Source: Promethearchaeota archaeon
Lineage (GTDB): Archaea > Asgardarchaeota > Lokiarchaeia > Sigyniarchaeales > SOKP01
DNA: 21,489 nt
Assembly: GCA_048938445.1 (NCBI GenBank)
Contig: JBHLME010000076.1
Span: 1-21,489 of the forward strand
Reading direction: 5' to 3'
Shown: one piece after another, positions 4,382 to 20,943 of the stretch
Position numbering within the stretch: the first letter of the stretch is position 1
Layout: the number at the start of each line of letters is the position of its first letter
Notes under the pieces: generated by a model
The model's database searches: none
Seen by the model: the letters and a program-made list of their open reading frames with translations, nothing else
What the model was told of the DNA's origin: nothing
Program-made: the position numbers and the translations under genes

Positions 4382-5413
4382 ATCGAGAACATTACAATTG
4401 ATCAAAAAGATTATAAGATTTTACTTGATCTATTAAAAGAAAAGACGGGACTTAATTTTGAATACTATAGAAAGAATTTCATTGAGAAAAGGATTAAATC
4501 CAGAATGATAAGAGTTAATTGCTGGACTCTTAAAGATTATTATAAGTATTTATTTGCAGATGAGGAAGAAGTAAGAAAATTTCTTAAAGGATTTACTATA
4601 AATTATACTTTTTTCTTCCGAGATTATGATGTTTTTGAAACTTTTCAAGATATGTTTTTAGATGGATTAAATGTAAATAAAGGTGAAATTCAAAGTCATA
4701 TTAGGCCAAGCCCTGCAAAAATAGCTAAGTTTCGTTCAAAACAAAATCAAGCTAAATTACAGATGAAACTCGCTAAAGAATCTAGTAAACCAGAAAAAAG
4801 CTATGTTGACATTTTTATATTTCTAGATCGTCTGGCATTTTATAGAAAGTTAAAAAAACCAAGAAATGAAGCCAATACAATAAAAATATGGTCTTGTCCG
4901 TGTGCTACTGGGGAAGAACCTTACTCAATTGCTATGATTTTAAATAATCTTGAACAACAAATACCTAATTTTCCTCGTTATAAAATAGTTGCTTCAGACA
5001 TTGCAATAGAGGCAATAGAAAAAGCAAATAAAGGTATTTATTCTGATGATTCAATGAAAGAAATTTCAGACTATTATGAAAGAAAATATTTTATAAAAAA
5101 AAAAGTCAATTTTGGGCATGTGAATAGGATTAGTGAAGATATAAAAAAAAAGGTTGAATTCATTCAAGAAGATGTAACCAAAGGACATGCTTATCACAAC
5201 CAAAAATATGACATTATATTTTGCCGTTATTTATTTATTTATTTCAATCAAGAAAATCGACATAAATTTTTGAAAATTATCGATAAACATTTGAAAGAAA
5301 ATGGATTATTAATCTTGGGAAAGACTGAAACATTATTCGGATCTTATGGATCTTTTACTCAAATTGATTCAAGAAATCATATTTATATAAAATCTCGGTC
5401 AAAATTATTTTAA
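4382..5413 (+). CDS. cheR: CheR-like SAM-dependent protein-glutamate methyltransferase (copy 1)
   Basis: INYTFFFRD, IWSCPCATGEEPYS, ASDI, DIIFCRYLFIYF and LILGKTE. The ORF track starts at 4505, but 41 upstream in-frame codons (IENITIDQKDYKILLDLLKEKTGLNFEYYRKNFIEKRIKSR) are homologous to the N-terminus of copy 2. Confidence 0.85.
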   Translation: MENITIDQKDYKILLDLLKEKTGLNFEYYRKNFIEKRIKSRMIRVNCWTLKDYYKYLFADEEEVRKFLKGFTINYTFFFRDYDVFETFQDMFLDGLNVNKGEIQSHIRPSPAKIAKFRSKQNQAKLQMKLAKESSKPEKSYVDIFIFLDRLAFYRKLKKPRNEANTIKIWSCPCATGEEPYSIAMILNNLEQQIPNFPRYKIVASDIAIEAIEKANKGIYSDDSMKEISDYYERKYFIKKKVNFGHVNRISEDIKKKVEFIQEDVTKGHAYHNQKYDIIFCRYLFIYFNQENRHKFLKIIDKHLKENGLLILGKTETLFGSYGSFTQIDSRNHIYIKSRSKLF

Positions 5414-5460
5414 ATAAATTTATGAAAACTACTAAAAAAAATATTATTTAAGATTTATAA

Positions 5461-6477
5461 ATGGTGCAAACTTCTCGAATTAAAATAGATGAAAAGTCAT
5501 TTCAAGCATTAATTTCTTTATTGAAACAAAAGACAGGTTTAAATTTAGGATATTACAGACGCACCTTTATATTAAGAAGAATCCAAGCAAGAATGATTCG
5601 AATAAATTGTAATAATCTTGAAAGATATAACAAGTATTTATTGTCAAATGTTAATGAACTCAAGAGATTTGTTGAAAGTTTTAATATTAATTACACATAT
5701 TTTTTTAGGGACTGGGATGTTTATGCTACAATTCAAAACATATTACTCCAATCATTAAAAATTGAAAATGATGAATTTTTAAATAAATTAAGACCAAGAA
5801 TTCCAGAGACACCTCAAAAACTTCCAAAAAGAACAAGGATTGCAGAACAAGATATAATATATAATAAAAATTTGCTTTCTAATCTTAAAGAATTAGCAGT
5901 TTACAAAAAGATAAATAATCCAAAAAAAGTTAAAGTACCAATTTATATTTGGTCTTGTGCTTGTGCTACAGGGGAAGAACCTTATTCTTTAGCAATGATT
6001 TTTAACAATCTTCAAGAAAGCCTTCCAAACTTTTCTAAATATGAAATTATTGCTTCAGATATTGATAAATTCGCTATTGAAGCCGCAAAAAGGGGGATTT
6101 ATACAGAAGAATCAATAAAATACATGTCAAAATATAATGAAAAGAGGTATTTCAAGAAGAAAACCACAGTTTTAGGAGATCAATATCACATAACTAACAA
6201 TATTAAGAAAAGCATAACTCTCCTAAATGAAGATATTACAAAAATTCACCTTTATTCATGGAAATTTGACTTGATCTTTTGTCGTAATCTATTGATTTAT
6301 TTTAACATCGAAAATAGAAATATGTTTATTAGAACTCTCGAAAGACAACTCAATGATGGTGGGATTTTAGTACTGGGAAAGGCTGAATCACTTTTTGAAA
6401 AAGAAGGCTCTCTTAAACTGATTGATCCAACCAACCATATATATGTTAAAGATAGATTTGATAAAATCCAAATATGA
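5461..6477 (+). CDS. cheR: CheR-like SAM-dependent protein-glutamate methyltransferase (copy 2)
   Basis: KTGLNLGYYRRTFILRRIQARM (CheR N-domain), INYTYFFRD, IWSCACATGEEPYS, ASDID and DLIFCRNLLIYF. Confidence 0.88.
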   Translation: MVQTSRIKIDEKSFQALISLLKQKTGLNLGYYRRTFILRRIQARMIRINCNNLERYNKYLLSNVNELKRFVESFNINYTYFFRDWDVYATIQNILLQSLKIENDEFLNKLRPRIPETPQKLPKRTRIAEQDIIYNKNLLSNLKELAVYKKINNPKKVKVPIYIWSCACATGEEPYSLAMIFNNLQESLPNFSKYEIIASDIDKFAIEAAKRGIYTEESIKYMSKYNEKRYFKKKTTVLGDQYHITNNIKKSITLLNEDITKIHLYSWKFDLIFCRNLLIYFNIENRNMFIRTLERQLNDGGILVLGKAESLFEKEGSLKLIDPTNHIYVKDRFDKIQI

Positions 6478-6483
6478 ATTTTA

Positions 6484-6555
6484 TGGGAGTGAAAGGATTC
6501 GAACCTTCCCAACGAGCTCCCAAAGCTCGGATGCTGACCACTACATTACACTCCC
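6484..6555 (-). tRNA. tRNA-Pro(UGG)
   Basis: Acceptor GGGAGTG/CACTCCC-A; anticodon arm CGAGC-TTTGGGA-GCTCG; T-loop TTCGAAT. Confidence 0.95.
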
Positions 6556-6595
6556 ATGCTAAAATTAACTTCTTAGCCAATATGTATTTTTAAAA

Positions 6596-6670
6596 TACTC
6601 CTGGTGGGATTTGAACCCACGTTTCTTTGATGAAAGCCAGTTATCCTTAACCTAACTAAATGACAGGAGC
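6596..6670 (-). tRNA. tRNA-Glu(UUC), degenerate anticodon stem (possible pseudogene)
   Basis: Acceptor GCTCCTG/CAGGAGT-A and T-arm GTGGG-TTCAAAT-CCCAC are intact. Anticodon arm ACTGG-CTTTCAT-CAAAG pairs poorly. Confidence 0.75.
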
Positions 6671-6677
6671 GTTCTAA

Positions 6678-6749
6678 AGCACGCGACAGGACTTGCACCT
6701 GCATGAGGAGATTTGCAGTCTCCCGCTTTTACTTCTCAGCCACGCGTGC
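6678..6749 (-). tRNA. tRNA-Cys(GCA)
   Basis: Acceptor GCACGCG/CGCGTGC-T (U73); anticodon arm GGAGA-CTGCAAA-TCTCC; variant T-loop TGCAAGT. Confidence 0.92.
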
Positions 6750-6760
6750 AGTAAATAAAA

Positions 6761-6835
6761 AGGCACTGAGAGGATTTGAACCCCTGATCAGCTACTTACA
6801 AGGAAGCTGCCTTATCCAGACTTGGCCACAGCGCC
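6761..6835 (-). tRNA. tRNA-Thr(UGU)
   Basis: Acceptor GGCGCTG/CAGTGCC-T; anticodon arm GCTTC-CTTGTAA-GTAGC (one mismatch); T-loop TTCAAAT. Confidence 0.92.
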
Positions 6836-6843
6836 AAATTTAA

Positions 6844-6915
6844 TGCGGGAGGGGTGATTTGAACACCCGTGAATCACTTGGAAGGCGAGCATCCTAACCT
6901 CTAGATGAATCCCGC
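6844..6915 (-). tRNA. tRNA-Gly(UCC)
   Basis: Acceptor GCGGGAT..CTCCCGC-A (imperfect at the base); anticodon arm CTCGC-CTTCCAA-GTGAT; T-arm GGGTG-TTCAAAT-CACCC. Confidence 0.9.
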
Positions 6916-6924
6916 TTGATTATA

Positions 6925-6998
6925 CGGTGGTGTCGGGATTTGAACCCGAGTTTGAAGGGCGACGACCATCAGTACTCACCAAGCTATACTACACCACC
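6925..6998 (-). tRNA. tRNA-Asp(GUC), atypical C33
   Basis: Acceptor GGTGGTG/CACCACC-G (G73); anticodon arm GATGG-TCGTCGC-CCTTC. Confidence 0.87.
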
Positions 6999-7004
6999 GA
7001 GGTA

Positions 7005-7078
7005 TCTGGGCGGGAGGAATTGAACCTCCAATCATCGAGTCTACAGCTCGCCGCCTTGTCCATTTTGGCCACGCCCAG
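7005..7078 (-). tRNA. tRNA-Tyr(GUA), archaeal/eukaryal type
   Basis: C1-G72 acceptor CTGGGCG/CGCCCAG-A; anticodon arm GCGAG-CTGTAGA-CTCGA; short variable loop. Confidence 0.93.
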
Positions 7079-7087
7079 ATTGATTTC

Positions 7088-7160
7088 TACTCCCGGACGG
7101 ATTTGAACCGGCGTTATGGGATTCAAAATCCCAAATGCTTGACCACTACACCACGGGAGT
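7088..7160 (-). tRNA. tRNA-Gln(UUG)
   Basis: A1-U72 acceptor ACTCCCG/CGGGAGT-A (archaeal Gln signature); anticodon arm TGGGA-TTTTGAA-TCCCA. Confidence 0.93.
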
Positions 7161-7173
7161 ATTTATCAATAGA

Positions 7174-7197
7174 GTTTGGGATCTAGTGATCCCAAAC
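7174..7197. repeat. Perfect 10-bp hairpin in the Ala-Gln spacer
   Basis: GTTTGGGATC-TAGT-GATCCCAAAC. Confidence 0.7.
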
Positions 7198-7205
7198 ATA
7201 TCGAT

Positions 7206-7247
7206 GATCGCCAAATGCGACTTCTTTTCTTTTCTTATGATCACCTC
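7206..7247 (-). repeat. Conserved array spacer element, copy A
   Basis: Minus strand reads GAGGTGATCATAAGAAAAGAAAAGAAGTCGCATTTGGCGATC. 26 of the first 31 aligned positions match the copy at 8175 (+). Confidence 0.7.
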
Positions 7248-7262
7248 CTTTTTTTTATTTTG

Positions 7263-7334
7263 TGGAGCCGGAAGGACTTGAACCCTCATCTCCCAGTATG
7301 CAAAACTGGTGCTTTTCCATTAAGCTACGGTCCC
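7263..7334 (-). tRNA. tRNA-Ala(UGC)
   Basis: Acceptor GGGACCG/CGGCTCC-A with G3:U70; anticodon arm CCAGT-TTTGCAT-ACTGG. Confidence 0.94.
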
Positions 7335-7348
7335 ATTTATTGTAAGAA

Positions 7349-7420
7349 GGTTCGGTGAGAGATTTGAACTCTCATCTGTCGCATCACAAACAACTATACT
7401 TCCATTATACTAACCGAACC
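7349..7420 (-). tRNA. tRNA-His(GUG), encoded G-1
   Basis: G-1 plus GTTCGGT/ACCGAAC-C73; anticodon arm GTTGT-TTGTGAT-GCGAC. Confidence 0.92.
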
Positions 7421-7440
7421 TTGTGATAATTTCTTTCAAA

Positions 7441-7577
7441 GGAATTAATACCCTCCTCTTAATTCATTGTAGTAAATTATTGAAAGTTTTAAAGAGGTGG
7501 AAGAAGTTATATTGAAATCTAATTGAAAAAGTAAATAGAAAAATGGGTGATATTACAGGAGACGGGTATTAATATTC
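7441..7577. other. Long imperfect inverted repeat in the array A leader
   Basis: ATTAATACCC-TCCT-CT-TAAT-TCA (7444-7466) pairs with TGA-T-ATTA-C-AGGA-GAC-GGGTATTAAT (7548-7573). Confidence 0.55.
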
Positions 7578-7690
7578 AATGAATATAGCGTTCACTACAT
7601 TTTTGCCCCTCCGTCGGGGCGCCTTTATTATGATATATAGTAAATACCAAATTTACACGTCTCATAGTATAGTTAATAACTCATCTTTAA

Positions 7691-7775
7691 TATTTAAATA
7701 TTATGGTCAAAATTGCCCACACTTTTCCCATTTTCAATTTTATGATATTTCTAGCGATAGATTTAAATATATAAT
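7691..7775. promoter_or_regulatory. Candidate divergent promoters between arrays A and B
   Basis: TATTTAAATA (7691-7700) and TTAAATATATAA (7763-7774) flank TTGCCCA/TTTCCCA repeats. The same layout recurs at 14283-14365. Confidence 0.45.
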
Positions 7776-7827
7776 ATGCAATGATAATCCTATGAACAAT
7801 CGCATATTTAAGATCAAGATGCGTTGG

Positions 7828-7847
7828 CGACGAGTGAATGTCGTCAT
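7828..7847. promoter_or_regulatory. CGAC-N8-GTCG motif, copy 1
   Basis: CGACGAGTGAATGTCGTCAT is 16/20 identical to 14417-14436. Confidence 0.55.
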
Positions 7848-7937
7848 GATTAATAGATTTAAATATTAAATTCATTTAAATCTCTCACTTAAATACAGCG
7901 ATTAATATTTCTAACTTTTAATCCCTTGACATATTCC

Positions 7938-7954
7938 TTGAAAGACTTTATAAA
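7938..7954 (+). promoter_or_regulatory. BRE-TATA promoter proximal to array B
   Basis: ttGAAAGAC-TTTATAAA, ending 46 nt upstream of tRNA-Asn. Confidence 0.65.
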
Positions 7955-8000
7955 TACTTACATTCTGATACGACGACGGGATTTAATATGAATATAACAT

Positions 8001-8073
8001 ACCCCCGTATCATAATTGGTAGTGTTCCAGGCTGTTAACCTGTGAGGTGTATGTTCGAATCATGCCGGGGGTG
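8001..8073 (+). tRNA. tRNA-Asn(GUU)
   Basis: Acceptor ACCCCCG/CGGGGGT-G; anticodon arm CCAGG-CTGTTAA-CCTGT; T-loop TTCGAAT. Confidence 0.9.
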
Positions 8074-8083
8074 CTAAATTTAT

Positions 8084-8156
8084 AGAGTCATGGTCTAAAT
8101 AGGGAGGACCCTCGACTGAAGCTCGAAGGATGTAGGTTCAAGTCCTACTAACTTCA
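8084..8156 (+). tRNA. tRNA-Phe(GAA), degenerate acceptor stem (possible pseudogene)
   Basis: Anticodon arm CTCGA-CTGAAGC-TCGAA; T-arm GTAGG-TTCAAGT-CCTAC; acceptor AGAGTCA/TAACTTC has two mismatches. Confidence 0.78.
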
Positions 8157-8174
8157 TATAAAATAAATTTAATT

Positions 8175-8216
8175 GATGTGATCATTGGAAAGAAAACAAG
8201 TCGCTTCTATACGACC
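8175..8216 (+). repeat. Conserved array spacer element, copy B
   Basis: GATGTGATCATTGGAAAGAAAACAAGTCGCTTCTATACGACC is homologous to 7206-7247 (-). Confidence 0.7.
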
Positions 8217-8264
8217 AAAGGTAAAAAATTTATGAGTAAAATAAGTTAGTTTAATTAAAAAATT

Positions 8265-8339
8265 AGGGGTGTCGATTAGTCAGGTTAGGTCACCGTTCTG
8301 ATACAGCGGAGAACGTGAGTTCAAATCTCACCACCCCTA
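8265..8339 (+). tRNA. tRNA-Ile(GAU)
   Basis: Acceptor AGGGGTG/CACCCCT-A; anticodon arm CCGTT-CTGATAC-AGCGG; T-arm GTGAG-TTCAAAT-CTCAC. Confidence 0.92.
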
Positions 8340-8346
8340 CTAAAAT

Positions 8347-8368
8347 GAGCTTGTGGCTCAATCTGGTC
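8347..8368 (+). pseudogene. 5' fragment of a tRNA (acceptor 5' strand plus half of the D-arm)
   Basis: GAGCTTG-TG-GCTC-AATCTGGTC begins 7 nt after tRNA-Ile. No anticodon arm, T-arm or matching acceptor 3' strand follows. Confidence 0.6.
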
Positions 8369-8424
8369 ATCACAAAAAATTCACAAATTGATGAAAAAAT
8401 CCCTTTCCACTCTTGTACATTAAA

Positions 8425-8497
8425 TGGAGTGTGATCTAATGGCTAGGATGCTTCCTTTACGAGGAAGATGATGCAGGTTCGATTCCTGCCACTCCAA
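8425..8497 (+). tRNA. tRNA-Val(UAC)
   Basis: Acceptor TGGAGTG/CACTCCA-A; anticodon arm CTTCC-TTTACGA-GGAAG; T-arm GCAGG-TTCGATT-CCTGC. Confidence 0.93.
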
Positions 8498-8507
8498 CTC
8501 TAAGAGA

Positions 8508-8580
8508 GAGGGTATGGCCAAGTGGATGAGGCAGTGGGCTTCTAACCCACAGATCGTCGGTTCAAATCCGATTACCCTCT
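8508..8580 (+). tRNA. tRNA-Arg(UCU)
   Basis: Acceptor GAGGGTA/TACCCTC-T; anticodon arm GTGGG-CTTCTAA-CCCAC; A20 in the D-loop. Confidence 0.93.
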
Positions 8581-8589
8581 AATAAAAAT

Positions 8590-8663
8590 GGGAGTGTAGC
8601 ATAGTTGTTTAGTGCATTGGGCTCCAAACTCGAAGGTCACCGGTTCAAATCCGGTCACTCCTA
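8590..8663 (+). tRNA. tRNA-Trp(CCA), intron-less
   Basis: Acceptor GGGAGTG/CACTCCT-A; anticodon arm TTGGG-CTCCAAA-CTCGA; D-loop lacks the G18G19 pair. Confidence 0.9.
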
Positions 8664-8672
8664 TGATATAAA

Positions 8673-8745
8673 GGGCTATTAGCGTAGTGGCTAACGCAGC
8701 GGGCCTTTAACCCGAAGAACGGGGGTTCAAATCCCTCATAGCCCA
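8673..8745 (+). tRNA. tRNA-Lys(UUU), atypical C33
   Basis: Acceptor GGGCTAT/ATAGCCC-A; anticodon arm GCGGG-CCTTTAA-CCCGA. Confidence 0.9.
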
Positions 8746-8753
8746 TAAATCTT

Positions 8754-8825
8754 ACGGACGTAGTATAATCGGGAAGAATTTCAAATTCATGATCTGAGGT
8801 AGTGGCTCAAATCCACTCGTCCGTA
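8754..8825 (+). tRNA. tRNA with CAU anticodon (probably Met), divergent
   Basis: Acceptor ACGGACG/CGTCCGT-A (A1-U72); anticodon arm TCAAA-TTCATGA-TCTGA; T-loop CTCAAAT. Lacks the initiator's three G-C anticodon-stem pairs. Confidence 0.78.
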
Positions 8826-8834
8826 TTTAAATAA

Positions 8835-8907
8835 ACACCCGTGGTCCAAGGGATAGGGCCCTCGCCTTCGAAGCGATAAGATGTAGGTTCAAGTCCTACC
8901 GGGTGTA
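8835..8907 (+). tRNA. tRNA-Arg(UCG)
   Basis: Acceptor ACACCCG/CGGGTGT-A; anticodon arm CTCGC-CTTCGAA-GCGAT; T-arm GTAGG-TTCAAGT-CCTAC. Confidence 0.92.
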
Positions 8908-8911
8908 TCAA

Positions 8912-8983
8912 AGGAGTGTAGCTTAGTGGTAGAGCATGGTCCTTATATGGCTAAGGTCGAAGGTTCAATTCCTTCCACTCCTA
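8912..8983 (+). tRNA. tRNA-Ile(UAU)
   Basis: Acceptor AGGAGTG/CACTCCT-A; D-arm GCTT/GAGC; anticodon arm TGGTC-CTTATAT-GGCTA; T-arm GAAGG-TTCAATT-CCTTC. Confidence 0.87.
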
Positions 8984-9066
8984 TTTTAATATAATTGATA
9001 TCTTGAAAGATTATGTACTTTAAAATTTTTCATAAGTAACTAATTAAAATATAATTTGTCCAATTA

Positions 9067-9600
9067 CTACCAAGTAATTTCAAAAATAGATTTATCTTTA
9101 TCAATAATTTCAACTGTACTTGTTTCAATCCCGAACATTTCCAAAATTCCTATAAAAACACCTTTAAACAACAAGGCATCATAAGATTTAGCTGGTGCGG
9201 GAGCTTGAATTATGACATGCCCCTCCTCAAATTTTATAATTTCTCGGGGTATGACTTTAGAGACATCATCATCTTTATGGTCATTGAGAAATGTTTGTGA
9301 CTCATATCTTAGAGCTTCCGAAGGCCTTTCAAAATCTGGTAAACCAACAGTCTGCTTTATTATTGGAAAGATATTTTTTCCCATATTAACCAAAGCATTC
9401 ATGCCCAATGGAGATGCTTCAATATATGTATTTAAAAACAATTCGAGTAACTCACCATCATACCATCCTTCGGGTTCAAGTTCACTAAAATGTTTTCCTA
9501 TTTTATTATAAAGTGCTTGATCTGCTTTTTTTTGGTCATCTTTATAAAGATTCATTAATCTTCCGCAGAAAGTAATATACTTTCCATGTACTTGTACCAT
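9067..9600 (-). CDS. Hypothetical soluble protein, possibly H-NOX/V4R-like ligand-binding fold
   Basis: 177-aa ORF with protein-like composition. LEPEGWYD...LVNMGK...FKGVFIGILEMFG...FEITW is reminiscent of H-NOX/V4R-type proteins (inference). Confidence 0.7.
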   Translation of the reverse strand: MVQVHGKYITFCGRLMNLYKDDQKKADQALYNKIGKHFSELEPEGWYDGELLELFLNTYIEASPLGMNALVNMGKNIFPIIKQTVGLPDFERPSEALRYESQTFLNDHKDDDVSKVIPREIIKFEEGHVIIQAPAPAKSYDALLFKGVFIGILEMFGIETSTVEIIDKDKSIFEITW

Positions 9601-9813
9601 ATTCTTGAATTATATGAAATATAGTTAAATTATAAATATTGATATCTATAATTATTTAACTTTGCCTTATTTAAGTGTTGCAAATTTCAATTATCACTTC
9701 ATAAATAATTATTGAGTTAATAATAAAAGAATCTAAAATTAATACGAAGATTATTTGGATCTCAATTTCTTTAACAATATTTGTAGGATAATTTATCCTA
9801 TTATATTTAAGTT

Positions 9814-9830
9814 GAAAAAAAGTTTATATA
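9814..9830 (+). promoter_or_regulatory. BRE-TATA promoter of the corrinoid/methyltransferase pair
   Basis: GAAAAAAAG-TTTATATA, 70 nt upstream of the ATG at 9901. Confidence 0.55.
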
Positions 9831-9900
9831 ATTACTTTACTCATTTGAATAATATCAAATTTAATTATAATTTTTAAAAAATCTAAAAGGATGTACAAAT

Positions 9901-10533
9901 ATGTCTAATGATTTAATTAATTTAATAGTAGAATTAAATGAAAAAGAATCGATTGAGGCAATTCAAGAAAAGATTAAATCTGGTGAAGATCCTTTTAAAA
10001 TTCTTGATGATGTAAGAATTGCAATGGGAGAGATTGGTAAAAGATATGAGACTAATGAATATTTCTTGGCAGATTTGATGATGTCTGGTGAAATCTTACG
10101 ACAGATCAGTGAAATTTTAGAACCACATTTAAAAACAAATACAAAAACTGAAAGTATTGGGATTATTCTCTTGGGTACAGTTGCAGGTGATTTACATGAT
10201 ATCGGTAAAAATATTGTAAAATTTATGCTAGAAACGAATGGTTTTGAGGTTCATGATCTTGGTGTAGATATACCAAGTGAGAAATTCGTTGAAAAAGCTA
10301 AAGAAATAAATGCAGATGTAATTGCTCTTAGTGGATTTCTTACCCTAGCTTATGATTCAATGAAAGAAACAATTGAAGAAATTGTTAAAGCAGGATTAAG
10401 AGATAAGGTAAAAATAATGATAGGAGGAGGACAAATAGACGATAGAATAAAAGATTATGTCGGTGCCGATGCATATGGTAAGGATGCTTTAGAAGCAGTG
10501 GCTCTTGCTAAAAAATGGGTGGGTACTACTTGA
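9901..10533 (+). CDS. Cobalamin-binding corrinoid protein (MtbC/MtmC-like methyl carrier)
   Basis: Cap domain (IGKRYETNEYFLADLMMSG) plus B12 motifs GTVAGDLHDIGKNIV, LSG and MIGGG. Confidence 0.93.
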   Translation: MSNDLINLIVELNEKESIEAIQEKIKSGEDPFKILDDVRIAMGEIGKRYETNEYFLADLMMSGEILRQISEILEPHLKTNTKTESIGIILLGTVAGDLHDIGKNIVKFMLETNGFEVHDLGVDIPSEKFVEKAKEINADVIALSGFLTLAYDSMKETIEEIVKAGLRDKVKIMIGGGQIDDRIKDYVGADAYGKDALEAVALAKKWVGTT

Positions 10534-10568
10534 TAATCCTTTTTAAAAAAAATTGAGAGGTAATATAT

Positions 10569-11906
10569 ATGGTAAATAAGAGTGAAGAAGAATTAATGAA
10601 TGAAAAACAAGAAGAAATGCTTAAAGGATGGCTTTCACCACAAACTTTTGAGTTTCCTAATCCCGAAACAGAAAAATTATACAAAGAAAGAACAACCATA
10701 ATAAAGGATGCAATTCAATTAAAAAAAATTCCTGATAGAATACCCGTTATCTTAACTATTGGATTTTTTCCCGCATATTATAGTGGGTTTACTCCAAGAG
10801 AAATAATGTACGACTATGATAAATTATTTAGCGCGTGGAAAAAATATGTAGTAGATTTTAGTCCAGATGCTCATATTGGTGCTTTTGCTCCAGGATCAGG
10901 CAAAATTTTTGATATTCTTGACTATAAATTATATGCATGGCCTGGTCATGGGTGCTCGCCTAATCATTCATATCAATGTCTTGAAAAAGAATATATGCAG
11001 GCAAATGAATATGATGACCTAATTCAAGATCCTTCGGGTTTTTTTAGAAGTGTCTATTTACCAAGAATATTTGGGGCATTAGATCCTTTTAAAATGCTTG
11101 CACCACTCACCAATATTCTTGAAATTGTCTTTGTAGGAGGAGCAATAGTACCATACGGATTCCCAGAAGTTCAAGCGGCTGTAAGCAAACTTTTAGAGGC
11201 AGGAAGCGAAGCCTTAAAATGGGGTGGTGTTCTAGGAGCTTTTGATAAAGAGATGGGTGAATTGGGCTATCCAAACTTTTTTGGAGGTGCTACAAAGGCT
11301 CCTTTTGATACTATAGGTGATACTTTAAGGGGAACGAATGGTATAATGCTCGATATGTATCGACAACCTGACAATCTTCTTGAAGCACTTGATGCGATGG
11401 TTCCTTTAATGATAAAAATGGGTGTATCTGCGGCTAAAATGCATGGAAATCCCATTATATTTATCCCATTACATAAAGGTGCTGATGGATTCATATCAGA
11501 TGAACAATATAGGACTTTTTATTGGCCATCATTTAGAAAAGTTCTTATTGGCTTAGTTAAAGAAGGGTGCATCCCATTTCCTTACGCAGAAGGAGGGTAT
11601 AATTCACGACTGGAAGTCATTAAGGATTTACCAAAAGGAAAAGTAGTCTGGGGATTTGATCATGTCGATATGGTAAAGGCTAAAGAGATCTTAGGAGATA
11701 CTTGCTGTATTGGTGGAAATGTTCCTATTTCACTATTAAATGTAGGTACTCCCCAACAAGTAAAAGATCACGTAAAAAATCTCATTGATACTGTTGGAAA
11801 AGATGGGGGTTATATTATGATGAATGGAACTGTCGTTGAAGAAGCGAAACCTGAAAATGTAAAAGCTATGATAAATTTCACTAAAGAATACGGTATTTAT
11901 AAATAA
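10569..11906 (+). CDS. Uroporphyrinogen decarboxylase-family methyltransferase (MtbA/CmuA-like, MT2)
   Basis: PDRIPV, PFDTIGDTLRG, FISDEQYRTFYWP, CIGGNVP, GGYIM and AKPENVKAM; adjacent to the corrinoid protein. Confidence 0.88.
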   Translation: MVNKSEEELMNEKQEEMLKGWLSPQTFEFPNPETEKLYKERTTIIKDAIQLKKIPDRIPVILTIGFFPAYYSGFTPREIMYDYDKLFSAWKKYVVDFSPDAHIGAFAPGSGKIFDILDYKLYAWPGHGCSPNHSYQCLEKEYMQANEYDDLIQDPSGFFRSVYLPRIFGALDPFKMLAPLTNILEIVFVGGAIVPYGFPEVQAAVSKLLEAGSEALKWGGVLGAFDKEMGELGYPNFFGGATKAPFDTIGDTLRGTNGIMLDMYRQPDNLLEALDAMVPLMIKMGVSAAKMHGNPIIFIPLHKGADGFISDEQYRTFYWPSFRKVLIGLVKEGCIPFPYAEGGYNSRLEVIKDLPKGKVVWGFDHVDMVKAKEILGDTCCIGGNVPISLLNVGTPQQVKDHVKNLIDTVGKDGGYIMMNGTVVEEAKPENVKAMINFTKEYGIYK

Positions 11907-12178
11907 ATTCTCGATTGATGATAAATAAGTTTAAGAGGTATATCTGAATAGTTATAAGACTCTTTCTCAATCAAGAATTATTATCATTTTTTTTATTAGA
12001 TTTAGCTTTATATAAATAAATTAATTCTTTAATTTGATAATAATAATCCATTAACACTTTCCATTACATTTTTAAATTTAAAATTCCAATGGATGATTAA
12101 TTACTAGTTTAGAATTTTAATTAATCAATTTGTATAATAATTTTTAATAATTAATAATCATCATAAGGGTAATTAAAA

Positions 12179-13594
12179 ATGTTACAAACAATCAAAGATA
12201 AACTCGATAAAACATTCCATAAAATTTTTAGCAATAGCCATTTGATCTATACTTTACTTTTCTTACTCATCATTTTATTAATTTTATTGTTCAGTATCAC
12301 GCAAGATCCACAAATAGGAAATATTGCATTATTCATTGCAACCACCAGCGCATTAACTTTTATATTTATGATGATTTTATCGCTTTATCCCAATTTAGAA
12401 GAAAGCTTTTTTCTATCAGAGAAAATATTTGAAAAGAGAAAGGTATTCTTATTCTTAGGCATGTTCCTTATTAGTTTTATTATAGTTTTAATATATTTCT
12501 TTACAGGATCTTCAAACCAACTCGCAATTCAATTTTTAGGATGGGATTTATTGCTCCCAATATTCTTTATCATTGTTTATTTTGGGTGGAATATTGTTCA
12601 AATTTGGTTTATTAAATCAGGTTTTGAAGATATTTCCAGTAAAATTGATGATAAACTGATTGGCTCAAAAGGAGATAGAACTGATAAGACATATTTGAGT
12701 ATTTTATTTTTAATTATTGCCTTGTTAATCCCTGTCTTAATGCAAATTGGAACTTTAATTGGATTTATGAATTATTTTTTACCACAGAATCCTGGAGATC
12801 CTCTAAACGATTTAATTTTATACATTGGATGGAATGTTATCATGTTCATTATAATTTTTTTGATATCATTACGTTTAATCTTACTTTTCGTTCAAAGCAA
12901 GAAGAAAAATACTCCAAATATTTTTTCCTCAATTTTTTATATCTTAATCGGAATTATCATTTGGTTCCGATCATTTAATTTCGTTAATTCATTCCAAAAC
13001 GTTACCTCAACATTGGGAGTAGAAGTATTTACAAATCTTATGGATATTTTATTGATGTTATTTACTTCGATAATGCTCTTAAGAGGTTTGGGTAATAAAG
13101 TATATAAATTTCGCATTTTTACACCAAATAACCTTCCTTTTTTCCTCTTTACATTCGCAATTCTCTACATTGAAGGACAAGTAATCATGATAACCGGAGG
13201 GGGGTCCATCTCACCTACTTTAACTGATTTCAAACAAATTAAACTCGTAAATAATTTTATTATTTTATTAGTAACAGTCATCTTCTATTGGTGGTATGCA
13301 AAATATAGTTTAGAACAAAAGGAATTGATTTTCAAGGGCTCATTTAAACCACGTGAAGTATATAGTATTTTAAAGGACTTTAAAATTCATTTAGAAAAAT
13401 ATGATTATCTTGAAACTAATAAGATAGATGACCAGGATATAAAATCATTTCTAAAAACTAAAAAAATAATAATTCTTGATGATGAAAAGGAAAAAGAATT
13501 GAAAACTGATATAAATTTTCAGGATTCTAATTCTAATAAAAGTGATCTTGAAGAGGAATCACTAGATATTGATATTGATGACAATTTGATATAA
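12179..13594 (+). CDS. Polytopic membrane protein of unknown function with acidic C-terminal tail
   Basis: 471 aa, roughly 10-11 hydrophobic segments, D/E-rich tail. Confidence 0.8.
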   Translation: MLQTIKDKLDKTFHKIFSNSHLIYTLLFLLIILLILLFSITQDPQIGNIALFIATTSALTFIFMMILSLYPNLEESFFLSEKIFEKRKVFLFLGMFLISFIIVLIYFFTGSSNQLAIQFLGWDLLLPIFFIIVYFGWNIVQIWFIKSGFEDISSKIDDKLIGSKGDRTDKTYLSILFLIIALLIPVLMQIGTLIGFMNYFLPQNPGDPLNDLILYIGWNVIMFIIIFLISLRLILLFVQSKKKNTPNIFSSIFYILIGIIIWFRSFNFVNSFQNVTSTLGVEVFTNLMDILLMLFTSIMLLRGLGNKVYKFRIFTPNNLPFFLFTFAILYIEGQVIMITGGGSISPTLTDFKQIKLVNNFIILLVTVIFYWWYAKYSLEQKELIFKGSFKPREVYSILKDFKIHLEKYDYLETNKIDDQDIKSFLKTKKIIILDDEKEKELKTDINFQDSNSNKSDLEEESLDIDIDDNLI

Positions 13595-13610
13595 TAATAT
13601 AAAGTAATAG

Positions 13611-13694
13611 CGTGAGGGATGGGATTTGAACCCATGGTGGACCAGCCACATCAACTTAGCAAGTTGACACATTACCTGACTATATTACCCTCAC
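13611..13694 (-). tRNA. tRNA-Ser(GCU)
   Basis: Acceptor GTGAGGG/CCCTCAC-G; anticodon arm TCAAC-TTGCTAA-GTTGA; long variable arm GTGG-CTGGT-CCAC. Confidence 0.92.
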
Positions 13695-13703
13695 ATTTAT
13701 TAG

Positions 13704-13791
13704 CGCGACCGGGAGGATTCGAACCTCCGGTGGTGTAAAACCACTCCCACTCTCAAGGCAGGTACCTTCGGCCAGGCTCAGTCACGGCCGC
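13704..13791 (-). tRNA. tRNA-Ser(UGA)
   Basis: Acceptor GCGGCCG/CGGTCGC-G; anticodon arm CCTGC-CTTGAGA-GTGGG; long variable arm; G73. Confidence 0.9.
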
Positions 13792-13799
13792 TTTTTTAA

Positions 13800-13883
13800 T
13801 ACGGGAATGCGGATTTGAACCGCAGAACCTCCTACGAGGAGTAGTGTTTGAATCTACTGCCTTTATCACTCAGCCATTCCCGT
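13800..13883 (-). tRNA. tRNA-Leu(CAA)
   Basis: Acceptor ACGGGAA/TTCCCGT-A; anticodon arm GTAGA-TTCAAAC-ACTAC (31-39 mismatch); variable arm TCCT-CGT-AGGA; A73. Confidence 0.83.
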
Positions 13884-13889
13884 TTTTTA

Positions 13890-13973
13890 TGGTGCGGATG
13901 GCAGGATTTGAACCTGCGATGCACTTAGCACCAGCTCCTAAGGCTGGCTCCTTACCAATTCGGTCACATCCGC
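13890..13973 (-). tRNA. tRNA-Leu(UAG), CCA encoded
   Basis: Acceptor GCGGATG/CATCCGC-ACCA; anticodon arm CCAGC-CTTAGGA-GCTGG; long variable region. Confidence 0.94.
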
Positions 13974-13982
13974 ATTGTTTTA

Positions 13983-14064
13983 TGGTACAGGGAGAGGGAT
14001 TCGAACCCACGAGCACTTTGCCATAGATCTTAAGTCTATTGCCTTCCCATTTGGCTATCCCTGC
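13983..14064 (-). tRNA. tRNA-Leu(UAA), CCA encoded
   Basis: Acceptor GCAGGGA/TCCCTGT-ACCA; anticodon arm ATAGA-CTTAAGA-TCTAT; long variable region. Confidence 0.94.
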
Positions 14065-14282
14065 ATATTATTTAGGATTTGGTTTTACATATAGAAGAAC
14101 GAGTAAAAGAAATATGAATTTTCTTGGAAATGAATAAAAATCTTGAATGAAAAAGCTGCTGTTAACTGATCTCTAACTGACTATAACGATAAAAGACTGA
14201 ACAATCTGCTCAGCAACAATAATAAAATATTATTTGAACCATTATTGTACGAGATCATTAAATTTAAAACATATAGTTATGC

Positions 14283-14365
14283 TTATAAATATATCGCATG
14301 ATTTTTCCCACTTTAATGGGTAAAATATTCTGGATTATTCAATATAATAATACTTAAATATATAA
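14283..14365. promoter_or_regulatory. Candidate divergent promoters with a palindromic operator
   Basis: TTATAAAT (14283-14290), palindrome TTTTTCCCA-CTTTAA-TGGGTAAAA (14302-14325) and TTAAATATATAA (14354-14365). Confidence 0.45.
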
Positions 14366-14416
14366 CTCTCTTTCATAAATGTATGTTAAAATGTGTTTAT
14401 AGAATCGGTAATCTTT

Positions 14417-14436
14417 CGACAAGAGAAAGTCGTTAT
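14417..14436. promoter_or_regulatory. CGAC-N8-GTCG motif, copy 2
   Basis: CGACAAGAGAAAGTCGTTAT is 16/20 identical to 7828-7847. Confidence 0.55.
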
Positions 14437-14459
14437 ATGCAATGGGATCACTTTAACAG

Positions 14460-14565
14460 ATAGTCGAGGATCCATCTATAAATATTACACATCTTACATA
14501 GTAATAACTTATTTATAACTAAATACAACCGAATGCTTGATTATCATGGACGGATTCTCGACTAT
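14460..14565 (+). other. 14-bp long-range stem in the intergenic leader
   Basis: ATAGTCGAGGATCC (14460-14473) pairs with GGATTCTCGACTAT (14552-14565), including one G-U pair. Confidence 0.6.
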
Positions 14566-14751
14566 TTTTAAGTTCAATTAATGAGAATCACCAAGAAAAA
14601 TAATTGAAATAATGATTATTTTATTGATAATCTTACCCAGAAGTTAGATGATGTCAATTTGAAATAAACACGCATGATAATTTAGCGAAATTTTGAATAA
14701 CTAGAGACTTTATCCATTTTATTATTCACACATTTCTATTTCAAATACTAA

Positions 14752-14825
14752 GGACATGTAGCTCATGGGGTTAGAGCATTCGGTTCTTTACCGAAAGGAG
14801 GTGGGTTCAAATCCCCCCATGCCTT
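14752..14825 (+). tRNA. Degenerate tRNA, anticodon CUU (Lys); possible pseudogene
   Basis: Acceptor GGACATG/CATGCCT-T; D-arm GCTC/GAGC; anticodon arm TTCGG-TTCTTTA-CCGAA (U37); mismatches in the acceptor and T stems. Confidence 0.72.
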
Positions 14826-15004
14826 CTAATAATGATATTGATAATTATAAATAGAAGAAGGTTCTGAAAGCCTGGATGTAAATTTACTAAAAAAATTTAT
14901 ATGATATTTTTAACTAATTAGGTTATCTTAGTTAGAATTGAAAATTATTTCTATAAACTATATTACCGAGAAACAACTACTTTAGTATAAAAAATTTTTT
15001 AACA

Positions 15005-15106
15005 GCCAAGGTGGCGTAGAAATCTTTAATTTCTGAAGGTTACGAAACCCGGGAACGCACCAGACTGAAGATCTGGGTATCGGGGGTTCAAATCCCCCCC
15101 TTGGCA
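15005..15106 (+). tRNA. tRNA-Phe(GAA) with a 26-28 nt intron in the D-loop (about 15020-15047)
   Basis: Acceptor GCCAAGG/CCTTGGC-A; anticodon arm CCAGA-CTGAAGA-TCTGG; perfect T-arm. The insertion forms a BHB-like structure (CGTA/TACG helix with 3-nt bulges). Confidence 0.9.
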
Positions 15107-15149
15107 TCATTTTATTTTACATCAATCATAGAACCTATTAGAACAATTA

Positions 15150-15971: not shown

Positions 15972-16090
15972 TACTACATTTATCAAATTTACTCTCTTTT
16001 TAATACAATGAATTTATATATATCTTATTTTTATAGTATTTCATATAAAAATTATAATGCAAATCTAAATAGAAAAAAGGGTAAATATTC

Positions 16091-17089: not shown

Positions 17090-17133
17090 AAATAATATCT
17101 CTTTTTTTTTCAATTTTAATTTAAAAATTTCAC

Positions 17134-18183: not shown

Positions 18184-18291
18184 TTCATTATTTAATTCAT
18201 TCAGACAATGAATCTGATATATTTGTAAAATTTCTACTTATGATTTATATTATTGGAAGAATTATAAAGATTAATCTAAAATTTTTTATAG

Positions 18292-20934: not shown

Positions 20935-20943
20935 GGATTTAAT

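Follow-up and report, generated by a model that had tools for sequence, protein, structure and literature searches.

The window, that is, the whole 21.5-kb contig analyzed here, contains 27 tRNA matches according to Rfam family RF00005 and 26 according to ARAGORN; the Rfam-only match is Glu-UUC (6596-6670, minus strand). Membership in the tRNA family was judged by the gathering score of the RF00005 covariance model (29 bits), and all 27 matches exceed it, with scores of 36-69.7 bits. Twenty-five of the tRNAs fall into three groups. Array A (6483-7420, minus strand) contains ten, in transcription order His-GUG, Ala-UGC, Gln-UUG, Tyr-GUA, Asp-GUC, Gly-UCC, Thr-UGU, Cys-GCA, Glu-UUC (weak) and Pro-UGG. 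Array B (8001-8983, plus strand) contains another ten, Asn-GUU, Phe-GAA, Ile-GAU, Val-UAC, Arg-UCU, Trp-CCA, Lys-UUU, Met-CAU (A1-U72), Arg-UCG and Ile-UAU, and array C (13610-14064, minus strand) contains five, Leu-UAA, Leu-UAG, Leu-CAA, Ser-UGA and Ser-GCU. Gene density is ∼8 tRNA genes per kb in 6483-8983 (20 genes) and ∼3.1 per kb in 6483-15106 (27 genes). All array tRNAs are 71-89 nt long, so none is interrupted, and CCA is encoded only in Leu-UAG and Leu-UAA. Each of the 25 has a different anticodon, and coverage of all 61 sense codons requires that U34 tRNAs decode complete four-codon family boxes.

Reading the array sequences with the Rfam boundaries reveals C1-G72 and a short variable arm in Tyr, A1-U72 in Gln, G1-C72 in Pro, U73 in Thr, A1-U72 in Met, and an encoded G-1 with C73 in His. 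The identity features of Tyr, Gln, Pro, Thr and Met are archaeal. An earlier note, made from the letters of this DNA alone, had given the same gene order and anticodons for the three arrays, the absence of repeated anticodons and introns, the two CCA-encoding genes and the archaeal elements of Tyr, Gln, Pro and Thr; ARAGORN, Rfam, the gene lengths and ends, and the re-read sequence agree with it on every one of these points. It had also allowed that most of its calls might fail covariance models, which none of the 27 does.

Not all members are in good condition. Array Glu-UUC scores 37.2 bits, is missed by ARAGORN and forms two of five anticodon-stem pairs, and array Phe (8083-8157) scores 41.9 bits with two acceptor-stem mismatches (sequence read by eye); from their sequences, both copies look decayed in the window genome. 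Two further matches lie beyond array C, at higher coordinates. A Lys-CUU gene of array type (14752-14826, plus strand), supported by ARAGORN, Rfam and relatives, is displaced from array B, within which it lies in the relatives; its best match is an array Lys-CUU at 0.73 identity. A tRNA-like Phe-GAA (15033-15106, plus strand) is the weakest of the 27 matches at 36 bits; its acceptor stem is poor, no relative exceeds 0.68 identity to it, and it is probably decayed.

Arrays A and B share a divergent promoter block (7691-7769) that is conserved in three genera. It comprises the TATA element of operon A (7691-7698, minus-strand reading), that of operon B (7762-7769), and a conserved motif with two spaced ATGGG repeats (7705-7731); in genus g4, the promoter motif is duplicated, with one copy on each side of an inserted LRR gene. 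Downstream on the minus strand lies leader RNA element 1 (7559-7665, 107 nt), delineated by alignments and fold z-scores, which starts ∼26-33 nt after the TATA element and lies ∼140 nt upstream of tRNA-His. The distance from TATA to element 1 is fixed among the loci compared. In the alignments it folds into a terminal helix and three hairpins, with a z-score of -3.50 in the window; of the 13 copies, 11 reach -3.09 or lower. Element 1 is present at all array loci examined, has a single copy in the window genome, and matches nothing in Rfam even at E values up to 5-10. On the other side, leader element 2 (7791-7851, plus strand) is a conserved stretch upstream of tRNA-Asn with a hairpin whose stem differs in sequence among genomes. 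Arrays A and B also contain one spacer element each. The one between Ala and Gln (7162-7261, minus strand) consists of a GGAGGUG motif, 25-30 A-rich nucleotides and a GUCGC/GCGAC-type hairpin; it recurs in the same spacer of L014, L015, L139, L146 and L128, and no Rfam family matches it. A second copy occupies the Phe/Ile-GAU spacer (8158-8264, plus strand) and, compared with L128, L141, L149 and L011, shows a degenerate 5' motif and a hairpin at ∼8200-8215. In all, the cassette has three or more conserved non-coding elements without an Rfam match.

Distribution and insertion of the cassette

The earlier note had proposed searching Asgard genomes for syntenic arrays. Among 135 genomes of the family, with array carriers called by multi-hit matches, the cassette was found with identical gene order in eight other genomes from two other genera (g4 and g6). 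All four g4 genomes are carriers, as are one of the six in g1 and four of the ten in g6, where G052 additionally holds a remnant; no clustered tRNA matches occur in any other genus among the 135 genomes. The order of array A recurs in G020, G008, G044, G045, G047, G049 and G051 as well as in metagenome contigs, and that of array B is likewise kept in relatives and metagenome contigs. Half of the metagenome contigs that matched the element-1 pattern (11/22) carry the cassette. The match scores and the conservation of the whole cassette in these 8 other genomes and 11 contigs exclude a chance origin. Its layout is compact in G047, L134 and L149, with 26-27 tRNA genes within ∼3-3.5 kb. In genus g6, array C directly follows array B, and L128 is intermediate, with array C inverted and 0.9 kb past array B.

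Comparison with genomes of the same genus reveals two insertions in the window. Insertion 1 (approximately 6485-12170) has an empty site in three relatives: in G003, G004 and G005, the gene for a 471-aa membrane protein lies directly next to the second CheR gene, and both the insertion and the tRNAs are absent. Its protein cargo (9067-11906) comprises three genes, encoding a 177-aa protein (minus strand) that matches no known family, an MtbC-like corrinoid protein and an MtaA/URO-D-like methyltransferase. Insertion 2 (approximately 13601-15920) is defined by flank spacing in G004, which lacks it and in which a 332-aa gene follows ∼0.5 kb after the 471-aa gene. The earlier note had taken a canonical tRNA-Phe at 15005 as a sign of a separate housekeeping set; the gene is the weak match at 15033-15106 and not a housekeeping copy, and because it lies within the same lineage-specific insertion it is no evidence for such a set. 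Insertion 2 also contains a radical SAM gene (15150-15971, plus strand) whose best family is ‘radical SAM mobile pair protein B’ (TIGR04470), at 243 bits and thus under the curated cut-off of 410; G052 has a homolog (51% identity) at a distance of 1.5 kb from its remnant tRNA module. A deletion in the common ancestor of G003, G004 and G005, instead of an insertion, may also account for their empty sites.

Gene neighborhoods differ among array loci, with at least five settings (G000, g4, G047/G046, G049 and G051), and in G047 and G051 the array has an orphan DNA methylase or a LAGLIDADG endonuclease as its neighbor. The search turned up no integrase or transposase and no clear target-site duplication. 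A Pfam domain search detected no viral or integrase domains on the contig, in agreement with the earlier note, or at five other array loci. Successive scans of IMG/VR returned three unrelated matches, then none, then none; the three were bacterial-type, CCA-encoding tRNAs in a different order and at most 78% identical. An identity as a viral tRNA cluster was rejected, given the absence of viral genes at the six loci examined and of anything related in the three IMG/VR scans. The earlier suggestion that the arrays are cargo of a virus or large element thus survives in part: the DNA is absent from three congeners, but neither Pfam nor IMG/VR supports a viral origin.

Sequence evolution and dispersed tRNA genes

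Array tRNAs change fast, with a mean identity between genera of only 0.65-0.70. Host tRNA-Lys-CUU differs at 0-5 positions among genera g1, g5 and g11 (manual count). Across 26 within-isotype alignments, with 573 predicted stem pairs and 3777 cells, 288 pairs display compensatory double changes and 67 display one-sided changes, and 95 stem cells (2.5%) are non-canonical. A1-U72 of Met and C1-G72 of Tyr are invariant across the alignments, and the acceptor stem of array Lys-UUU is identical to that of host tRNA-Lys. As judged from these alignments, the structure-preserving change is indicative of selection for function; relaxed constraint could account in part for the speed of change.

Outside the window contig, the same genome contains 23 RF00005 matches, nine of which are 101-139 nt long. 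For 15 or more of the 25 array anticodons, the genome has a dispersed gene as well, often with an intron: His, Ala, Tyr, Gly, Thr, Cys, Glu and Pro from array A, and Ile-GAU, Val, Arg-UCU, Trp, Lys-UUU, Leu-UAG and Ser-GCU from the other arrays. Dispersed Gln-UUG is uncertain. No dispersed Asp-GUC, Asn-GUU, Phe-GAA, Met-CAU, Arg-UCG, Ile-UAU, Leu-UAA, Leu-CAA or Ser-UGA was found in the window genome, and no initiator Met anywhere; for anticodons in this group the array could be the only source. Rough subtraction of array matches leaves ∼20-23 in the array-bearing genomes G000, G020 and G044, and 13 remain in G047 (79% complete). Two array-free genomes that are 100% complete yield only 25 and 31 tRNA matches by the same method, which therefore misses genes. 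The earlier proposal that the array is additional to a housekeeping set is thus supported in part by the 23 outside matches and the 15 or more shared anticodons, but not to the extent of full redundancy, no dispersed gene having been found for nine anticodons; that the array holds the genome's only tRNAs is excluded for most isotypes, not for all. G34 and C34 isoacceptors are also present elsewhere in the window genome.

Ile-UAU deserves separate mention. TiaS was found in none of 34 genomes of the host class versus 6 of 7 from other classes of the phylum. The whole class thus appears to lack TiaS and would then have to read AUA by tRNA-Ile-UAU, which the array carries, as in eukaryotes.

Interpretation and relation to known tRNA arrays

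Bacterial L-arrays are described as at least 20 packed tRNAs for nearly all amino acids in conserved order, supernumerary, horizontally spread and with some decayed members, and the Anabaena array as silent under standard conditions and induced by translational stress (Santamaria-Gomez et al. 2021, PMC8421152). By that description, the Asgard cassette is likewise dense, near-complete and order-conserved, and has members that look decayed. Empty sites, at least five neighborhoods and a patchy distribution match their horizontal spread, direction and mechanism excepted; for their supernumerary character, dispersed counterparts were found for 15 of 25 anticodons and not for 9-10, by a method that under-counts. 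Unlike L-arrays as described there, the cassette has archaeal-type tRNAs, two divergent operons around a single promoter block, and leader and spacer RNAs that are structured and conserved; its genes are uninterrupted, in contrast to the often intron-interrupted tRNA genes of the host. Membership in the bacterial L-array lineage was rejected: the archaeal tRNA features and Asgard host make the cassette an analog of L-arrays. It also falls within the array unit of Tran et al. (2016, PMC4758250), which asks for 20 or more tRNA genes and a density of no less than 2 per kb. In their inference, arrays are acquired by transfer and then reshaped by rearrangement, deletion and duplication, a pattern with which the cassette is consistent.

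The reading we favor, and consider probable, is that of a horizontally mobile supernumerary tRNA cassette, the archaeal analog of bacterial L-arrays, with archaeal-type tRNAs that fit this Asgard class. In its compact form it would consist of two divergent operons (11 + 16 genes) sharing one promoter block, each beginning with a structured leader RNA and containing one conserved spacer element. We infer from the sequence that each operon is transcribed as one precursor, from which RNase P and tRNase Z would release the tRNAs, with CCA added later and charging to follow; use of the cassette may be conditional. Unlike many dispersed host genes, array tRNAs would need no splicing. With one tRNA per codon box or half-box, and U34 or G34 where possible, the cassette would therefore add a minimal complete decoding set to the dispersed genes, some of which it may have replaced. 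In the window genome, it would have inserted beside the CheR gene and afterwards been broken up, leaving arrays A and B together and array C, Lys-CUU and the decayed Phe 4.6-6 kb off.

Several other explanations were weighed. An artefact, whether through misbinning or chimerism of the contig or through bacterial or phage sequence in the bin, is scarcely credible despite a bin contamination estimate of 8.2%. The GC content of the contig (0.30) equals that of the genome (0.296), and its flanks are syntenic with five same-genus genomes (65-77% identity in the main matches). The junctions are bridged by contigs of an independent sample (4622-8219, 8287-11140, 11268-15081 and 15074-19247; depth 15.7-18.8, equal in array and flanks and even across junctions) and by a second study (6389-6885 and 13532-14015), which disposes of the chimerism the earlier note had considered. 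The tRNA identity features are archaeal, and a Ras-family GTPase is encoded near the arrays. The genome also encodes an actin homolog (424 bits to PF00022) that is 97-100% identical to at least 80 genome records, mostly Promethearchaeota/Promethearchaeia MAGs, in line with the Asgard-like host proposed earlier. Selfish or neutral cargo of a virus, plasmid or other mobile element, of no benefit and slowly decaying, is improbable. It would explain the patchy distribution, the lineage-specific insertions, the fast sequence evolution, the decayed Glu and Phe genes and the G052 remnant, and it would suit the radical SAM gene beside tRNAs in two genomes, with its family named for mobile elements, and the methylase or endonuclease next to the G047 and G051 arrays. 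Against it, just 2.5% of stem cells lack pairing at a sequence divergence of 30-35%, half of the pairs have compensatory changes, and order, promoter and leaders are conserved in three genera and 11 metagenome contigs; moreover, viral and integrase domains were not detected at six loci, three IMG/VR scans gave nothing related, and depth matches the flanks.

That the cassette is instead the main housekeeping source of tRNAs, a highly expressed operon pair beside secondary or decaying intron-bearing genes, is quite improbable. The minimal yet complete anticodon set, the strong structure-preserving selection and the 9-10 of 25 anticodons without a dispersed gene found, including all Asp, Asn, Phe and Met, point that way. 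However, most of the family lives on dispersed genes alone, three congeners lack the cassette at the same site, the same detection gap appears in array-free complete genomes (25-31 matches), and dispersed copies of 15 anticodons are retained. Moreover, the Glu gene and the two Phe candidates of the window genome are of poor quality, so good copies must lie elsewhere. Possible, although unlikely, is a splicing-independent emergency or defense module, a self-contained minimal tRNA set that travels whole between Asgard lineages, in which the unusually fast, structure-preserving evolution reflects an arms race and the leader and spacers are new RNAs. Its own regulated bidirectional promoter would then switch on when the intron-bearing tRNA pool breaks down or comes under attack, tRNA nucleases of viruses or toxins and a loss of splicing capacity being examples, with element 1 and the GGAGGUG-hairpin spacers as module-specific regulatory or processing RNAs.

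Dense tRNA arrays have been reported for few archaea only. Tran et al. (2016, PMC4758250) report one among 165 archaeal genomes, in Methanobrevibacter ruminantium (21 genes). According to Morgado and Vicente (2019, PMC6333295), archaeal clusters occur only in Halobacteria and Methanobacteria, with none in Asgard genomes; they are mostly redundant and linked to mobile elements, and that of Haloarcula vallismortis covers all 20 isotypes. Compared by description only, these share archaeal-type tRNAs with the Asgard cassette; as far as that account goes, it makes no mention of leader or spacer RNAs or of a contrast with an intron-rich host. No earlier description of tRNA arrays, clusters or operons in Asgard or Lokiarchaeota was found in the article texts and abstracts searched. 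With the cassette, the L-array strategy would extend to the archaeal relatives of eukaryotes. Asgard tRNA genes are reported to be unusually intron-interrupted, and the cassette offers a natural experiment, with intron-free and intron-bearing tRNA sets within one cell. The compact array genes may also skew Asgard tRNA and intron censuses, and possibly MAG tRNA counts.

Two further comparisons are instructive. Like phage and giant-virus tRNA clusters, the cassette is compact, fast-evolving and biased towards U34/G34 anticodons, but the examined arrays have no viral genes beside them, and depth in the window is chromosomal. Like organellar minimal sets, such as the 25 tRNA isotypes given for the apicoplast (PMC12069591), it has ∼25 anticodons, one per codon box, and needs extended U34 wobble; unlike organellar sets as described there, it is an add-on in a free-living archaeon with other isoacceptors. 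The Glu and Phe genes that look decayed and the G052 remnant fit dispensability, as well as plain decay.

Gene content and layout of the cassette

The window encodes 26 tRNA genes according to ARAGORN, and 27 matches to Rfam RF00005 reach or exceed the gathering score. They are organized as array A (6483–7420, minus strand, 10 tRNA genes), array B (8001–8983, plus strand and divergent from array A, 10 genes) and array C (13610–14064, minus strand, five genes), with a Lys-CUU gene at 14752 outside the three arrays and a weak tRNA match, Phe-GAA, at 15033. The anticodons and gene order proposed in the earlier note are identical in the ARAGORN/Rfam annotation, and its description of the genes was borne out: the array tRNAs are uninterrupted (71–89 nt each), only two (Leu-UAG and Leu-UAA) encode CCA, and the archaeal identity elements Tyr C1-G72, Gln A1-U72, Pro G1-C72 and Thr U73 are all present when the sequence is read with Rfam bounds. 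Each codon box or half-box is served by one of the 25 array anticodons, which have U34 or G34 wherever possible, with Leu-CAA in addition, and cover 20 of 20 amino acids; by wobble rules, all 61 sense codons would be served only if U34 reads whole family boxes. Two genes look impaired in this genome, to judge from their predicted stems: array Glu-UUC (37.2 bits, missed by ARAGORN) keeps two of five anticodon-stem pairs, and array Phe at 8083 (41.9 bits) has two acceptor mismatches, read by eye.

A BLAST search across 135 genomes of the family returned clustered matches to the cassette (arrays A, B and C together with Lys-CUU) in four of four genomes of genus g4, five of ten of genus g6 (one a remnant) and one of six of the window's own genus, g1 (G000 alone), and in no other genus. 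Gene order is the same at the fetched relative loci, as annotated with ARAGORN and Rfam. In the compact cassette of g6, operon A reads His-Ala-Gln-Tyr-Asp-Gly-Thr-Cys-Glu(-Glu)-Pro and the divergent operon Asn-Phe-Ile-Lys(CUU)-Val-Arg-Trp-Met-Arg-Ile(UAU)-Lys(UUU)-Leu-Leu-Leu-Ser-Ser; that of genome G047 packs 27 genes into ∼3 kb. This layout indicates that array C and Lys-CUU of the window are displaced parts of operon B, an assignment also supported for Lys-CUU by its similarity to array-type Lys-CUU. Scanning metagenomes with the pattern of element 1, the leader RNA of operon A, yielded 22 contigs: same-order arrays lie on 11 of them, L145 has element 1 without an array, and the other 10 proved to be unrelated sequence. 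On metagenome contig L128, array C is inverted and lies 0.9 kb after B, which is, judged by its arrangement, an intermediate towards the window layout. The G052 remnant module (contig C258; L020 2750–5528) consists of a promoter, a decayed element 1, a single tRNA-Ala-UGC and a radical SAM gene of the family represented in the window. A small open frame (∼70 aa, read from the spacers) lies between Cys and Glu of array A in g4 and on one metagenome contig (L011 ∼9334–9630, L017 ∼13121–13371, L149 ∼6790–7174) and is absent from the window.

Comparison with relatives of the same genus delimits the probable insertions. The second CheR gene directly adjoins a gene for a 471-aa membrane protein in G003, G004 and G005, and in the window arrays A and B and three protein genes separate the two. 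A 332-aa gene follows the 471-aa gene by ∼0.5 kb in G004; between them the window carries array C, Lys-CUU, the Phe-like gene and a radical SAM gene. No tRNA was called at the syntenic loci of these relatives. Gene adjacency therefore defines two lineage-specific segments, ∼6485–12170 and ∼13601–15920. Around these segments, a repeat search turned up nothing beyond short, weak repeats in two copies (e.g., 6470–6488 and 14110–14128), and these were not taken for target-site duplications. The radical SAM protein has 'radical SAM mobile pair protein B' as its best match (243 bits against a cut-off of 410), and a homologue with 51% identity is encoded 1.5 kb from the G052 remnant module.

Leader elements, neighborhoods and probable mobility

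The inter-operon block comprises a TATA box (7691–7698), a motif with two spaced ATGGG repeats (7705–7731) and a second TATA box (7762–7769), and is conserved. Element 1 (7559–7665, minus strand) is a structured RNA at the 5' end of operon A that begins 26–33 nt downstream of its own TATA box in every copy and measures 107–123 nt across loci. Its predicted fold consists of a terminal helix and three hairpins, with stem sequences that vary among copies. As the loops vary in length among copies, an RNAalifold consensus from a MAFFT alignment contained just the terminal helix and hairpin 3, and the structure was judged by per-copy fold z-scores: these lie between −3.09 and −5.90 for 11 of the 13 copies and are −2.04 for L145 and −0.46 for the G052 remnant. 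Element 1 was seen only with the cassette, the solitary L145 copy excepted, and occurs once in G000. Operon B is led by element 2 (∼7791–7851). A spacer element is found once per operon (7162–7261, minus; 8158–8264, plus) and is built of a GGAGGUG motif resembling a ribosome-binding site, ∼25–30 A-rich nucleotides and a GUCGC...GCGAC hairpin; it recurs at L011, L013–L016, L128, L134, L139, L141, L146 and L149. The L128 copy contains a perfect C-box-like GUGAUGA and no D box. An Rfam search at permissive E-values assigned no family to element 1, element 2 or the spacer elements. A 96-aa open reading frame (7579–7869) is not considered a gene, because in relatives its tblastn alignments lose the frame and track the conserved RNA elements. 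The two operons would be transcribed as two precursors, which would then be processed and their tRNAs charged.

Cassette neighbors are CheR genes in G000, Meth_synt_2 and DNA methylase genes in G047 and G046, a histidine kinase gene in G049, and methylase and LAGLIDADG-type endonuclease genes in G051. In g4, where an LRR gene has been inserted between the operons, the neighbors are LRR, WD40 and Arf-like GTPase genes. The endonuclease gene lies directly after the G051 array (L015 8245–9120), and N6/N4 DNA methylase genes lie beside the G047 and G051 arrays (L013 11343–12266 and L015 1600–2676, respectively); both kinds of neighbor may hint at the cassette's means of movement. At the g4 locus L011 (10913–14716), the gene between the operons encodes a 1267-aa leucine-rich-repeat protein and is bracketed by two direct copies of the ATGGG-repeat promoter motif; the flanks of L011 and L017 carry further LRR and WD40 genes. 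The cassette loci examined revealed no integrase or viral domains, and IMG/VR scans with the Cys and element-1 patterns gave no matches. Three IMG/VR contigs matching the Arg-UCG pattern were judged coincidental, carrying bacterial-type CCA-encoding tRNAs in another order and at most 78% identical. The viral origin considered earlier is thus unsupported by domain scans or by the three IMG/VR scans.

Redundancy, selection and fit to the host

The best reading of these data is that the cassette is a functional archaeal analogue of bacterial L-arrays, a set of tRNA genes that would be supernumerary and horizontally spread. An artefact is a very unlikely alternative, on which the assembly is informative. 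The window is an entire contig of 21,489 bp (C215), and the bin holding it amounts to 4.63 Mb in 256 contigs, with an estimated completeness of 96.5% and contamination of 8.2%. GC content is 0.30 for the contig and 0.296 for the genome; contigs from an independent sample cover 4622–8219, 8287–11140, 11268–15081 and 15074–19247 at a depth of 15.7–18.8, and short contigs from a second study bridge 6389–6885 and 13532–14015. The matching GC and the bridging contigs at even depth indicate that the window is neither chimeric nor a high-copy element, which disposes of the chimerism that the earlier note had named as grounds for abandoning its claim. A further, unlikely alternative, that the cassette is inert mobile cargo, has to be set against the pattern of substitution in within-isotype alignments (26 isotypes, 3–9 genomes). 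Mean identity of array tRNAs is only 0.65 (g1–g4), 0.70 (g1–g6) and 0.65 (g4–g6), whereas host tRNA-Lys-CUU differs at no more than 0–5 positions among g1, g5 and g11 by our own count. Compensatory double changes affect 288 of the 573 predicted pairs and one-sided changes 67, and non-canonical cells make up only 95 of 3777 in the stems. Low identity combined with preserved pairing indicates that the array genes change fast while selection maintains the cloverleaf. The A1-U72 pair of Met and the C1-G72 pair of Tyr are invariant.

The remaining alternative, also unlikely, that the cassette is the main housekeeping tRNA set, turns on the dispersed genes. Outside the contig there are 23 RF00005 matches, all dispersed, nine of them 101–139 nt long; hidden introns have been reported in Asgard tRNA genes. 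Dispersed anticodons were read with ARAGORN, with a free-insertion alignment and, in the anticodon loop, with HMMs. Relaxing the intron settings of ARAGORN produced 187 mostly implausible calls, which were discarded, and the T-arm-anchored free-insertion alignment gave mixed splice calls, of which only those confirmed by ARAGORN or HMM anticodon reading were kept. About 30 dispersed anticodons were identified, 15 of them shared with the array: His, Ala-UGC, Tyr, Gly-UCC, Thr-UGU, Cys, Glu-UUC, Pro-UGG, Ile-GAU, Val-UAC, Arg-UCU, Trp, Lys-UUU, Leu-UAG and Ser-GCU. Lys-CUU is also present in duplicate (array type and dispersed), and dispersed Gln-UUG is uncertain. By a method that under-counts, dispersed Asp, Asn, Phe, Met, Arg-UCG, Ile-UAU, Leu-UAA, Leu-CAA and Ser-UGA were not found in the genome, and isotype-specific HMMs likewise retrieved no dispersed Phe, Asn, Asp or Met genes. 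The under-counting is plain from two array-free genomes: although 100% complete, they yield only 31 and 25 tRNA matches. Rough subtraction of array matches leaves ∼20–23 in G000, G020 and G044 and 13 in G047 (79% complete), compared with 25–31 in these two genomes. The proposal of a complete second set is therefore supported in part: the array is additional for most isotypes (15 of 25 anticodons also dispersed), and for nine anticodons the under-counting method found no dispersed gene.

The cassette also fits the decoding of its host class. None of 34 genomes of that class (each ≥90% complete, three closed) yielded the TiaS domain (PF08489), against six of seven genomes from other classes of the phylum and four of four archaeal control genomes. 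Given this distribution, the class seems to decode AUA with tRNA-Ile-UAU, a tRNA that the array encodes. Eukaryotes decode AUA in the same way. Literature on Lokiarchaeota with TiaS, agmatidine or tRNA-Ile was not found among the matches listed. Together with an acceptor stem common to array Lys-UUU and host tRNA-Lys, this fit argues for an origin of the cassette within this lineage, or long adaptation to it. Some array genes of relatives contain insertions of ∼20–45 nt in the anticodon arm or T-arm, in Phe and Arg-UCU of g4 (L011 15253–15355 and 15820–15910; L017 8210–8311), Gln (L128) and Ser-UGA (L134), indicating that an otherwise uninterrupted cassette can gain introns.

The protein genes of the contig are cellular. 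They encode DNA-alkylation repair, DUF362, two CheR, a corrinoid protein and its methyltransferase, a radical SAM enzyme, an alcohol dehydrogenase (which as a query found no related loci), an MFS transporter, a HAD hydrolase and a Ras-family GTPase. The last adjoins a 211-aa protein of no known family (20299–21489), and two paralogous membrane proteins (364 and 324 aa; 454–2571) likewise belong to no known family. Actin homologues are present in the genome; the best of them reaches 424 bits against PF00022 and is 97–100% identical to the 80 genome records listed, mostly labelled Promethearchaeota/Promethearchaeia MAGs; Thor-, Hermod-, Hod- and Odinarchaeota labels and one labelled bacterium also occur among them. 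With an actin so conserved and labels so mixed, only the phylum is secure.

Other arrays in Asgard archaea

Tran et al. (PMC4758250) report one archaeal array unit among 165 genomes, and Morgado and Vicente (PMC6333295) place clusters only in Halobacteria and Methanobacteria. A 2026 preprint on Asgard tRNA introns does not contain the words array, operon, tandem or intronless, and the literature searched, supplementary tables aside, yielded no account of arrays of this kind from Asgard archaea. When 400 genomes of the phylum were scanned for three T-loops in close succession, 36 matched, and six further loci were fetched. Dense arrays occur at G131:C135 (18 genes in 1.5 kb) and G230:C852 (15 genes), both on contigs of 3–5 kb, at G328:C4:161–163 kb (17 genes, CCA encoded) and at G278:C3:627–632 kb (11 genes); G307:C1 and G140:C26 carry arrays of six and five genes. 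Compact arrays thus recur in Asgard bins, some on very short contigs and with bin assignment as given, and the gene orders of all six differ from that of the cassette.
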